Shown here: piece by piece, positions 23,474 through 46,355 of the stretch | Numbering within the stretch: the stretch's first letter is position 1 | Layout of the letters: each line of letters starts with the position of its first letter | NCBI GenBank assembly: GCA_963801605.1 | Contig: CAWDFP010000007.1 | Location: 128,001-192,000 of the forward strand | Reading direction: 5' to 3' | DNA: 64,000 nucleotides | Source of the DNA: an uncultured candidate division Zixibacteria bacterium | GTDB taxonomy: Bacteria; Zixibacteria; MSB-5A5; UBA10806 | Notes under the pieces: model-generated | What the model saw: the letters and a program-made list of their open reading frames with translations, nothing else | What the model was told of the DNA's origin: nothing | Databases searched by the model: none | Translations under genes and position numbers: made by a program

Positions 23474-23508
23474 AGTTATGCGTTATGAGTTATGAGTTGT
23501 GGGTTAAC
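23474..23508. repeat. Heptamer tandem repeat (AGTTATG-like, 5 units)
   Basis: AGTTATG CGTTATG AGTTATG AGTTGTG GGTTAAC. Confidence 0.65.
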
Positions 23509-37527: not shown

Positions 37528-39246
37528 TTAGAGTTGTTCCAGCACCTGGCAGGCCCGTTCAACCGCCTGTTCGACCGGCACCTTTTCCATTACGAGCCCT
37601 TTGCGGCGCACGATTTCGACCTTGCCCTCCTTCAGGCCCCTATCACCCACGGCAATTCGAACAGGAACACCGATCAGATCGGCATCATTGAATTTGACGC
37701 CCGGACGCTCATCGCGATCATCAAGCAGCACTCCATAGCCTTTGTCCTGAAGTTGATCATAGATATCCATAGCCACCTCTTTAAGCTGTTCGCTATTGAT
37801 ATCGAGAAGCACGATATGGAAATCATAAGGGGCAATTGTCTTTGGCCAGATGATCCCCTTCTCATCGTGGAAAGCCTCCACGGCGGCCTGGGCGGTACGG
37901 GTAATACCGATACCATAAGAACCCATGATAATCGGCTTTTCAGAACCGTCGGCGTCTTTGAAAGTGGCGCCCAAAGCCTCGGAGTATTTGGTACCAAGCA
38001 TAAAGAGATTGCCGACCTCTATGCCTGAATATGAGATTAACCGTCCCTGATTGCAGCGCGGGCAAACTTCACCGGCCTGGGCGAGGCGTAGTTCGGTATA
38101 ATCGTCAATCTCGAAATCGGAAAGATTGGCGTTGATGATATGGGTATCATCACGATTGGCGCCGACCACAAAATTGCGCATCACTTTAATCTCGTTATCG
38201 GCGATAACTCTGACCTTTTTTAAGCCAATAGGCCCGGCAAAACCGACCTGGGCATTGGTCACATTCATCACTACCTCAGGGGGCGATAGGGTTAGCTCAG
38301 TGGAACGAAGGTAGTTTTGAAGCTTAATCTCGTTGATGTCGCGGTCTCCACGAATCAGGACAGCCACAGTTTCGCTATCGGATTGATAGAGCAAAGTTTT
38401 GATTAGTTTTTCCGGTCCAACCTTAAGAAACGCAGTGACCTCTTCGACGGTCTTCATTTTCGGCGTAAAAACCATATCCTTATTCTTAGGTTCTTCTCTG
38501 GGCGTATCCTCATCGGACATGGAAAGCGACGTGGCTTTCTCGATATTGGCGGCGTAATCGCATTGATTGCACGAGAGAATTATGGTTTCGCCGCCGGATG
38601 TATTTACCGGCACCATAAACTCATGTGCCAGTGTACCGCCCATCGCGCCTACGTCGGATTCCACCATCTTAACATCGAAACCGATTCGGCGGAATGCTTT
38701 GAAATAAGCTTCAGCCATTTTATTATAGGCCACTTTCAAGCCATCGTAGCTGGCATCGAAAGAGTAAGCATCCTTCATAATGAATTCGCGGCCTCGCATC
38801 AGGCCGAAACGAGGCCGGGGCTCGTCACGGAATTTAACCTGAATTTGATAGAGATTTTTCGGCAGTTGACGATAGCTGCGCAGCTCTCCCCTGATCAGCC
38901 AGGTGACTATCTCCTCGTGCGTACCGCCAAGGACCAGATCACGCTGATGACGATCTTTCATACGCATCTGCTCTTTGCCGACAATATCCCATCGTCCGGT
39001 TTTCTGCCAGAGTTCGGCAGGATGAAGCACCGGCATGGTGATTTCAACCGCGCCCGAGGCGTTCATTTCCTCACGCACGATATTTTCAATCTTGTGAATA
39101 ACGAGCAGCATAAGCGGCAGGTAATTGTAGACACCGGCAGTCAATTGCCTGATATAACCGGCGCGGACAAGCAGTTTATGCGAAGCAATTACGGCATCTG
39201 CCGGATCGTCTCTAAGTGTGGGAATAAATGATTGGCTCCAGAGCAT
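37528..39246 (-). CDS. proS: Proline--tRNA ligase (with editing insertion domain)
   Basis: SHKLLVRAG, KFRDEPRPRFG, GIEVG, GSYGIG. Confidence 0.98.
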   Translation of the reverse strand: MLWSQSFIPTLRDDPADAVIASHKLLVRAGYIRQLTAGVYNYLPLMLLVIHKIENIVREEMNASGAVEITMPVLHPAELWQKTGRWDIVGKEQMRMKDRHQRDLVLGGTHEEIVTWLIRGELRSYRQLPKNLYQIQVKFRDEPRPRFGLMRGREFIMKDAYSFDASYDGLKVAYNKMAEAYFKAFRRIGFDVKMVESDVGAMGGTLAHEFMVPVNTSGGETIILSCNQCDYAANIEKATSLSMSDEDTPREEPKNKDMVFTPKMKTVEEVTAFLKVGPEKLIKTLLYQSDSETVAVLIRGDRDINEIKLQNYLRSTELTLSPPEVVMNVTNAQVGFAGPIGLKKVRVIADNEIKVMRNFVVGANRDDTHIINANLSDFEIDDYTELRLAQAGEVCPRCNQGRLISYSGIEVGNLFMLGTKYSEALGATFKDADGSEKPIIMGSYGIGITRTAQAAVEAFHDEKGIIWPKTIAPYDFHIVLLDINSEQLKEVAMDIYDQLQDKGYGVLLDDRDERPGVKFNDADLIGVPVRIAVGDRGLKEGKVEIVRRKGLVMEKVPVEQAVERACQVLEQL

Positions 39247-39268
39247 GGCTTTCCTTTGGCAAAAAAAA

Positions 39269-39344
39269 AGTTCTGAGTGCTGAGTCCTGAGTGCTGAGAA
39301 ATAAAATAAATATTCAACCCAGTACTCAGTCCTAATTACTAAGG
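39269..39344. repeat. Inverted pair of heptamer tandem repeats
   Basis: AGTTCTG AGTGCTG AGTCCTG AGTGCTG ... ACCCAGT ACTCAGT CCTAATT ACTAAGG, next to an A9 run at 39261-39269. Confidence 0.8.
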
Positions 39345-39729
39345 TCTATTTTCTTCAATATCTCGTTTCGTTTGTATTGAGCTGCGCAGGCCGCCTATAA
39401 TTCTACCAACTTCTTCGGCTTGAGCAATTAAATGATCGAAATCGTCCTTAGCTACATAACCAATATCGAGGGAAGCATATAGCTGGGCTCTAACTTCGGC
39501 GCATGATGCCTTCGCAGTTGAGAGAAATTGATGAAACTCGGGTAAGCCGTTCTCTTTCGAATCCCTCTGCGATGTTGGACATTATCGATATAGAGGCACG
39601 TTGAATTTGTCCGCTCAGGCCAAAATCCTTGGCAAAAGCTCCTTGCCGAGTTACTTGATATATGGCACAAGTCAATTCCCGTGCTTTCTGCCAAGCGATC
39701 AAATCCTCGAATCTCTCTATTTTGCCCAA
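39339..39729 (-). CDS. Four-helix-bundle protein (23S-IVP/Avd-like family), one frameshift near 39550
   Basis: [26 protein letters not shown], then [20 protein letters not shown] in a second frame. Confidence 0.9.
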
Positions 39730-39993
39730 TCAAAAGCCGGTTCCTGAAATCAATATTACCAAGTTTCGGGAAATGCTGAAACTAGATGGTGCCGAATATA
39801 CATTATCAATCATGAGAGACGGCCAGATATATGTTGCTGTCATTAAACTCAAACGTATTATTTAATATCTTTCTACCATCAAGGATTGCGTGCGCGGCAT
39901 AAGTCCCGAGGCTGTGCCTGTTTTGGATTTTGTATGTGTTTAGATGGAGCCAACGGGAGCTTCTCTTATTTCCGCACTCTCGTCCCCTTTTAT

Positions 39994-40028
39994 ACTCAGC
40001 ACTCAGCACTTTTAACTCAGCACTGATT
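39994..40028. repeat. Heptamer tandem repeat at the tRNA-Arg(CCG) 3' end
   Basis: ACTCAGC ACTCAGC ACTTTTA ACTCAGC ACTGATT. Confidence 0.8.
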
Positions 40029-40031
40029 AAA

Positions 40032-40104
40032 TACCCCCAGGCCGACTTGAACGGCCGCACACGGCTCCGGAGGCCGCTGCTCTATCCAACTGAGCTATGG
40101 GGGC
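40032..40104 (-). tRNA. tRNA-Arg(CCG)
   Basis: Cloverleaf GCCCCCA...GCGGC-CTCCGGA-GCCGT...GGCCG-TTCAAGT-CGGCC-TGGGGGTA; CCA not encoded. Confidence 0.95.
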
Positions 40105-40519
40105 ATCCGTTTTAACTGCAAACTTCATGCGACCAGCCTTAAAACCGGTCAGGCATGTAGACATAATACGGTCACCAAATATTATACGCAAATGGTTTCT
40201 TGGGGAGTCACCGGTTAGGGGTCGTGAGTGGCCTTCTAAATATAGTGGTTCCAATATCCGATTGATAGATTGTATCTGAATTATTATAGGAGTTGTCATT
40301 ATCCAGGCAAAAGGCTATGCCAGAGAAGACAAATTCGGCGGCTAAAAAGTCGATACTCTACTTCAGATTCCTCCTGTAAAGTCGTATTTTCATTTCAGAT
40401 GGATGATATTAAAATGTGGGCGGTATTGCTTGGAGAAAATCAATTGGCTAGCGGAACTAGAAAGAACCGTAGATGTTATCTTAATAATTATTATCGTGGC
40501 TGTAACTGCGGATACAAAA

Positions 40520-43390: not shown

Positions 43391-43675
43391 ATGAGCGTAG
43401 CGCTTAAAGCAATACATGTAAACGTTTCCGGCGTTGTTCAGGGAGTCGGTTTCCGATGGTTCGTTAAGCAGGTCGCTGATCGCTGGGGCGTTAAGGGTTA
43501 TGTCAAGAACCTCTATGACGGTTCAGTCGAAGCCTACGCCGAAGGAGACGATTTCGCATTGAAGGGGTTTCTCGATGAGGTCAAACTGGGACCGCATCAT
43601 GCGCATGTATCGGGAGTGAATTTTAGTTGGATGGAATATCAAGGGAACTATAAGGAGTTCAGGATTGAATTATGA
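43391..43675 (+). CDS. acyP: Acylphosphatase
   Basis: [21 protein letters not shown]. Confidence 0.95.
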
Positions 43676-44203
43676 CTACAGATGAACTGAAAAGCAAAAT
43701 CAGAAACGTGCCGGATTTCCCAATCAAGGGAGTTATGTTTCGCGATATTACCACCCTTATCCAGGATAAGGCGACTTTCAAGTATGTTGTCGATCAGCTC
43801 TATGAGCGTTACCGCGATAAAAAGATCGATCAGATCGTAGGAATCGAATCACGAGGCTTTATTTTCGGAGGAGCGTTGGCGCACAGGCTGGGATGCGGCT
43901 TTGTGCCCGCCAGGAAGCCCGGAAAGCTGCCCAGCAAGACTATCGAGGAATCGTACGAACTCGAATACGGACGAACATCACTTACAATTACACACCGACT
44001 CAATTAAAAAGGGCGACCGAGTCGTAATTCTCGATGATCTATTGGCCACCGGCGGTACCCTGCGCGCCACCGCTAATATGATCGAGAGATTGGGCGGGAC
44101 TATCGTTGAGATTGCGGTGGTTATAGAATTATCATTTCTCAAAGGACGAGACAAGCTGACAAACTACAGCCTTTACGCGATGCTTGATTACGAATCGGAA
44201 TAG
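43672..44203 (+). CDS. apt: Adenine phosphoribosyltransferase (frameshift near 43981)
   Basis: [36 protein letters not shown]. Confidence 0.95.
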
Positions 44204-46320: not shown

Positions 46321-46355
46321 ACTCAGCACTCAGGACTCATCACTCAGTCCTGATT
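46321..46355. repeat. Heptamer tandem repeat at the tRNA-Arg(CCT) 3' end
   Basis: ACTCAGC ACTCAGG ACTCATC ACTCAGT CCTGATT. Confidence 0.8.

Follow-up and report, generated by a model that had tools for sequence, protein, structure and literature searches.

Between a tRNA gene and proS, in the DNA of an uncultured candidate division Zixibacteria bacterium, a small four-helix-bundle gene lies bracketed by heptamer repeats. This locus raises the question of whether gene and repeats belong together as one element and, if so, of what kind. The window analysed here is a stretch of 64,000 nucleotides from contig CAWDFP010000007.1 (assembly GCA_963801605.1, positions 128,001 to 192,000); its source genome is referred to as G000. 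The PF05635-type protein family was first found inside ribosomal-RNA intervening sequences. The family is common and includes members of solved structure, and we know of no function for it. Intergenic heptamer repeats of bacteria are likewise an old and long-unexplained puzzle, and the cyanobacterial STRR are period-7 arrays. A first-pass annotation, made from the letters of the window, had proposed that repeats and gene may form a small mobile or RNA-level module and had named it the best candidate for an undescribed system in the window.

Layout of the tRNA-Arg–proS locus

The features of the locus, in minus-strand order and followed by a related arm elsewhere in the window, are:

40031..40105, minus strand: tRNA-Arg(CCG), host gene upstream of the cassette (ARAGORN, Rfam)
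39995..40028, minus strand: 5' arm of purine-rich AGTGCTG-family heptamers, 1 + about 2.4 units, beginning 3 nt past the tRNA
39960..39972, minus strand: A/G-rich tail of the arm module, common to a gene-less arm at tRNA-Pro in genome G001
39728..39865, plus strand: 3' remnant of an aspartyl-protease/PDZ gene, 45 codons and a stop codon, abutting the start codon of the four-helix-bundle gene
39339..39729, minus strand: four-helix-bundle gene (PF05635/TIGR02436, by profile matches), TTG start, about 130 codons, frameshifted
39318..39337, minus strand: second same-sense heptamer array, immediately past the stop codon of the gene (sequence inspection)
39269..39298, minus strand: 3' mirror arm of 4.3 units (TRF), its word reverse-complementary to that of the 5' arm, with a T9 run behind it; predicted to pair with the 5' arm
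37528..39246, minus strand: proS, host gene downstream of the cassette
46321..46355, minus strand: sister arm without a gene, behind tRNA-Arg(CCT) (TRF; aligns with the 5' arm)

The first reading of this order, with AGTGCTG-type heptamers directly behind the tRNA, more of them right past the stop codon and then inverted copies, was accurate. Complementary termini with heptamer repeats surround an S23p-family reading frame at this locus, and the T9 run after the mirror arm lies 14 nt ahead of the proS start. In the predicted fold of the whole cassette, the 5' arm pairs with the mirror arm (z -2.3, 20 shuffles), and the predicted energy of this duplex is -38.7 kcal/mol versus -19.8 kcal/mol for the local hairpin. 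A search of the locus (L001) with Rfam returned the tRNA only, which places the cassette outside a 23S rRNA gene. As had been noted from the letters, no transposase or integrase was found in the 10 neighbouring ORFs scanned. A 209-nt contig of read run X1 covering 39078-39268 is 99% identical over the proS start and differs at the adjacent heptamer end, hinting, as a single low-depth contig, at fast turnover of the arm.

The four-helix-bundle gene was assigned to its family by profile search. Both halves pass the cut-offs of PF05635 (66.3 and 44 bits, cut-off 33.8) and TIGR02436 (54.9 and 42.8 bits, cut-off 24), and no other TIGR02436 locus was found in G000 with this profile. The family assignment thus stood; the gene is not intact in the assembly. 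The TIGR02436 model is matched in two frames (model positions 2-49 and 51-108), placing a +1 shift at about 39540-39548, near a run of three Cs. This shift is probably an assembly error rather than real, because other conserved genes of G000 are split as well (about 9/60, ~15%, among them groEL and apt) and because the protein is otherwise well preserved, with 79% identity to its nearest homologue, L076, and a short end branch (0.096). Counted by rows, 11/62 of the conserved-gene rows tested were split, a figure that includes this gene and counts groEL twice. The apt gene lies in the window itself (43672-44203, plus strand), where its coding sequence falls into two frames; G000 has several such apparent assembly frameshifts. 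One DNA read run contained 7% of the sequence words, and its coverage misses the frameshift site; no RNA run was found to contain the sequence.

The structure was modelled on the intact homologue L076 in place of the split gene of the window. The predicted model (pLDDT 96) matches 2GSC with a TM of 0.84, which indicates a four-helix fold, and also matches 2RLD and the Avd structures 4DWL and 8UB7 with TM of 0.75-0.77. Solved family members have five chains. The protein is not strongly basic; the net charge has a family median of +2 and is -3 for the window copy.

The DNA between the 5' arm and the gene had been taken for about 270 bp of scrambled sequence, a reading that must be abandoned: the plus strand at 39728-39865 encodes the C-terminus and stop codon of a PDZ/aspartyl-protease gene. 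Its product is 73% identical to residues 369-413 of the 413-aa protein P0002 (E 2.8e-10), which carries Asp_protease_2 and PDZ domains. No full-length close copy of the protease/PDZ gene was found in G000 with this query, and the 47-aa spacer peptide, used as sole query, had no match in 150 genomes of the class. The homology stops at the start codon of the four-helix-bundle gene. A BLAST extension that ran on into this gene was discarded as coincidence, as the antisense frames of homologues score equally against the PDZ protein (window 18; homologues best 25, median 12, n=59). Elsewhere in G000, at C6:500679-500813, a stretch outside any long ORF weakly resembles the C-terminus of another PDZ protease (E 0.42) and may be a second protease remnant.

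The distance from 5' arm to start codon is about 265 nt here, versus at most 139 nt in 49/51 loci in which the motif was found (69 examined). The window copy is therefore rearranged, and a deletion or insertion appears to have brought the protease remnant between 5' arm and start codon. A target-site duplication at the gene start was also considered and dismissed, since the A/G-rich stretch that resembles one (39960-39972) likewise trails a gene-less arm in G001. The arm at tRNA-Arg(CCG) itself resembles the gene-less arm module of the genus and may not be the original arm of this gene. The window copy is, in sum, a damaged member of a recurrent cassette class, and a poor copy for experiments.

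Heptamer arms and their words across the family

The family is present in 46/121 genomes of the host class. Homologous loci were collected from that class (30) and from an all-genome similarity scan (80); one had no match with the query, and 107 were scorable on each side. With a period-7 array called at a score of at least 7, arrays were found upstream in 86/107 and downstream in 76/107, versus 26/202 at other gene ends of the same loci. Periods 5, 6, 8, 9 and 10 reached at most 5/107. The enrichment of arrays next to four-helix-bundle genes, which the first-pass annotation had put forward as a check, was thus borne out, with about 20% of loci having no scored upstream array. In later counts, four loci of G002, a genome of the same genus, were added and 12 truncated, broken or contig-end rows were removed, leaving 101 loci. 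The two arms were reverse-complementary within one mismatch in 47/55 callable loci, whereas shuffled pairings gave a mean of 12 and a maximum of 20. Mirror heptamer arms are a hallmark of the family. The same repeat family does occur without the gene at several sites of G000 and G001, as would be expected if generic heptamer repeats merely neighboured an unrelated small gene; the counts, the mirror match and the tracking of words by clade described below refute such a chance neighbourhood and leave it very improbable.

The cassettes are mostly found behind genes. Of the 101 loci, 81 follow a co-directional stop codon, 10 are divergent, six are unclear and four follow a tRNA. The special tie to tRNA 3' ends suggested earlier was accordingly not upheld. 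The same figures largely refute a tRNA-targeted integrative element or its remnant, the probability of which is now very low. The start of the arm 3 nt past the tRNA, the presence of an AGTGCTG-family arm at 2/43 tRNAs of G000 and the variable DNA at this site in relatives speak for such an element, but neither an integrase among the 10 neighbours nor an att-like duplication of the tRNA 3' half was found: within 10 kb downstream, exact matches to it are no longer than 8 nt. Distant-clade cassettes of the host class (L053, L054, L056, L059 and L060) are flanked on both sides by tRNAs or, by eye, by tRNA-Ala and a structural RNA downstream of it. At one host-class locus, L061, gene and heptamer arms are located within the LSU rRNA (Rfam).

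The word of the repeat tracks the clade of the protein. At 60% identity or more to the window protein, the word was within two substitutions of AGTGCTG in 40/47 callable loci (of 59), in hosts that include Chloroflexota, Acidobacteriota, Cyanobacteriota, Planctomycetota, Nitrospirota and others. Such a word was found in 8/12 loci at 50–60% identity and in 2/20 below 50%, the latter mostly from the host's own class. The correlation of word with protein distance (Mantel rho 0.56, reached by 0/999 permutations) is overstated by kinship. Kin are non-independent, the close set came from a similarity search and the distant set from the host class, and the protein tree is a quick version with 47/99 forks open. 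Fourfold-degenerate sites of the close set are 27% identical (461/1716), that is, saturated; neutrally evolving DNA would thus be scrambled by now. The sequences thus suggest selection on the word in connection with the cassette, for which clade tracking is the best evidence. A universal positional grammar of the words was also tried and rejected; it beat 100/100 shuffles on 36 units, but 12/100 shuffles matched it on 20 non-redundant units.

With moderate confidence, we favour a widespread cassette, built like an intervening sequence and placed at gene and tRNA 3' ends, in which the arms are predicted to pair and the repeat RNA of the cassette is the likely ligand of its protein. In the host transcript, the arms would pair into a long stem and so loop out the gene. 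RNase III would cut this stem, as it does in the Coxiella element, leaving the host genes usable. The protein would be a ring pentamer like 2GSC and Avd, with each subunit reading one unit of the purine-rich arm. At least four bases of the upstream unit are purines in 71/79 loci. TRAP, a repeat-binding ring, offers an analogy for such reading. The word may be kept under selection through the ring's reading of the arm, and binding by the protein would be the simplest cause of word retention, not the sole one. Word retention could also stem from co-inheritance and stem constraint without recognition by the protein.

This latter possibility belongs to a rival explanation in which the arms are a structural stem only, rendering the insert harmless through an RNase III site and stop codons in every frame; the protein would have some other role, and the word would persist by hitch-hiking and pairing constraint. 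The strong mirror pairing, a stop codon within the unit in 67/80 loci and the near-neutral charge of the protein agree with it. So does the Coxiella burnetii report (PMC4990558), the accessible text of which describes a 23S intervening sequence (helix 45) with heptamers before S23p and a terminal stem, cutting of the stem by RNase III with excision of the element, and an S23p that is suggested not to be made in vivo and to be decaying. However, a plain stem tolerates compensatory change and needs no period of 7, and yet period and word persist despite saturated silent sites. A stem without recognition is therefore considered unlikely, and binding of the repeat RNA by the protein remains the preferred reading.

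Gain, loss and proposed movement at gene junctions

The proS locus was compared between G000 and 29 relatives, out of 58 genomes with a proS match. Upstream of proS, tRNA-Arg(CCG) was found in 21 of the 29 relatives and tRNA-Arg(CCT) in two, with no tRNA in the flank of six. The four-helix-bundle gene was present in 0/29 of these loci, and the interval between tRNA and proS varied from 25 to 954 nt. At least four of the 29 have, by eye, short heptamer-like runs of other words right behind the tRNA. One of these is G002, in which the word behind the tRNA is that of one of its own cassettes elsewhere. GC-rich REP-like palindromes are seen by eye between tRNA-Arg and proS in L007, L017, L019 and other such intervals; various types of small repeat thus accumulate at this site.

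G002 has six family matches. Its copy at atpG-atpD is 75% identical to the window protein and carries the same heptamer word as the window cassette, whereas G000 is clean at atpG-atpD and at atpD-atpC. At groES-groEL, a full cassette in G002 corresponds to a short fused-arm-like scar in G000 (by eye). Presence at orthologous sites is thus patchy, and the comparison supports gene and mirror arms as a recurrent unit, one that gene junctions gain and lose. To this extent the proposed mobile or RNA-level module was supported; its other part, a protein acting on the repeat, would fit the tracking of word by clade. Behind rplS in G000 (L070, C7:219100-219162), a same-sense arm and a short mirror arm followed by T8 enclose no gene. 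This segment looks like an emptied cassette and is predicted to fold as a terminator-like hairpin (z -3.6); a four-helix-bundle match representing the filled allele was found in 0/29 relatives' loci at the rplS site.

Arms without a gene are also found elsewhere. The 5' arm of the window cassette aligns with arms at tRNA-Arg(CCT) in G000 and at tRNA-Pro and stop codons in G001, and the G001 arm behind tRNA-Pro is nearly identical to the G000 arm behind tRNA-Arg(CCT). Such similar gene-less arms in both genomes indicate that arms persist or spread without the gene. The AGTGCTG word family has 10 matches in G000, four of them from this locus and the sister tRNA, mostly directly behind stop codons, a terminator or a tRNA. 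Gene-less arms are nevertheless few, as the tandem motif of the family was observed six times versus 3.1 expected from single-unit frequency. The genome-wide scan proposed at the outset gave a divided result. The strongest arrays of G000 (score of at least 10) have period 7 (5/2688 ORF ends, versus 0-1 for periods 5, 6, 8, 10 and 11), but at the loose cut-off of 7 period 7 is unenriched at gene ends (18 versus 14-26 for other periods). A second heptamer family (AGTTATG/AGTTGCG-like) occurs at gene 3' ends, in the window at 23474-23506 (plus strand) and in G000 at C6:152510, C6:156432, C6:1182081 and C6:1559088. In G000 and G001 its arrays are sometimes fused behind an AGTGCTG arm via an A-rich linker.

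The cassette would have no enzyme of its own, and its movement would most likely be by horizontal DNA transfer and short-homology recombination, with genes often lost while arms stay or spread. Such passive transfer is the default reading of movement. Retro-insertion is a minority reading, in which the Avd-like protein of a non-autonomous retroelement would deliver excised RNA, or the RNAs of the arms, to a reverse transcriptase from another locus, with cDNA then added at RNA 3' ends. The start of arms at stop codons, behind terminators and just past tRNA ends is consistent with this, as is the fold shared with Avd, an RNA-binding partner of the DGR reverse transcriptase. Genomes with the family also match the reverse transcriptase family PF00078 more often than those without (11/46 versus 7/75, p 0.037), a weak co-occurrence that may reflect real DGR Avd genes and relatedness. 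On the other hand, no PF00078 match was found in G000 (87% complete), in G002 or among the 10 neighbours, and only 3/18 genomes with five or more cassette copies have one. Retro-insertion is accordingly regarded as quite improbable, and passive transfer with recombination is retained.

Relation to known elements

The link of clade and word points to one defined candidate ligand per protein, so that the function of PF05635 and the puzzle of the heptamer repeats could both be approached with a simple binding assay. Intact homologues with an AGTGCTG-type word are L076, L092 and the atpG-atpD copy of G002. On a wider and tentative view, more doubtful than the cassette reading itself, four-helix-bundle genes might be an overlooked class of selfish cassettes in which the ring of each clade reads its own heptamer word in RNA. 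Cassettes and free arms would be added at gene and tRNA 3' ends across phyla and would be the source of the unexplained intergenic heptamers of bacteria, and the 23S intervening sequence would be one special case.

The cassette protein shares the four-helix fold of Avd (4DWL, 8UB7; TM about 0.75). In the accessible parts of two reports, Avd is described as a pentamer that is positively charged, partners the DGR reverse transcriptase and binds the RNA of its element (bioRxiv 10.1101/2023.10.23.563531; PMC10053308). Unlike Avd, the cassette protein is not strongly basic; identity to Avd is 11%, and the bAvd Pfam model scores below its cut-off. Unlike in a DGR, neither a reverse transcriptase nor a template/variable repeat pair was recognised in the vicinity of the locus.

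The arms share period 7 with published intergenic heptamers. In Xanthomonas and Nostoc, the available text of PMC4692102 places the G-rich strand just past stop codons and its complement just before starts, a polarity at gene ends that the window arms share, and inverted heptamer pairs are known from Xanthomonas. An intergenic repeat TAACTGA has been described in Beggiatoaceae (PMC4679880). The words of these repeats differ from those of the window and, as far as the accessible text of both reports goes, they are not tied to a four-helix-bundle gene.

The closest likeness is to the S23p intervening sequences of Coxiella and Leptospira. As they are described in the accessible text, the protein family is the same, heptamers precede the start codon and the stem ends are complementary; in contrast, the window cassette lies between a tRNA and proS, not in rRNA, and holds a foreign gene remnant. 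No description of such a cassette outside rRNA was found in the literature searched, which was largely open-access. Judging from the accessible parts of these sources, the protein family, the rRNA version with its Coxiella layout and gene-less heptamer arrays of the same polarity are already in print. What had been flagged as an undescribed system is thus narrowed to the cassette outside rRNA, apparently an undescribed variant of the intervening-sequence element.
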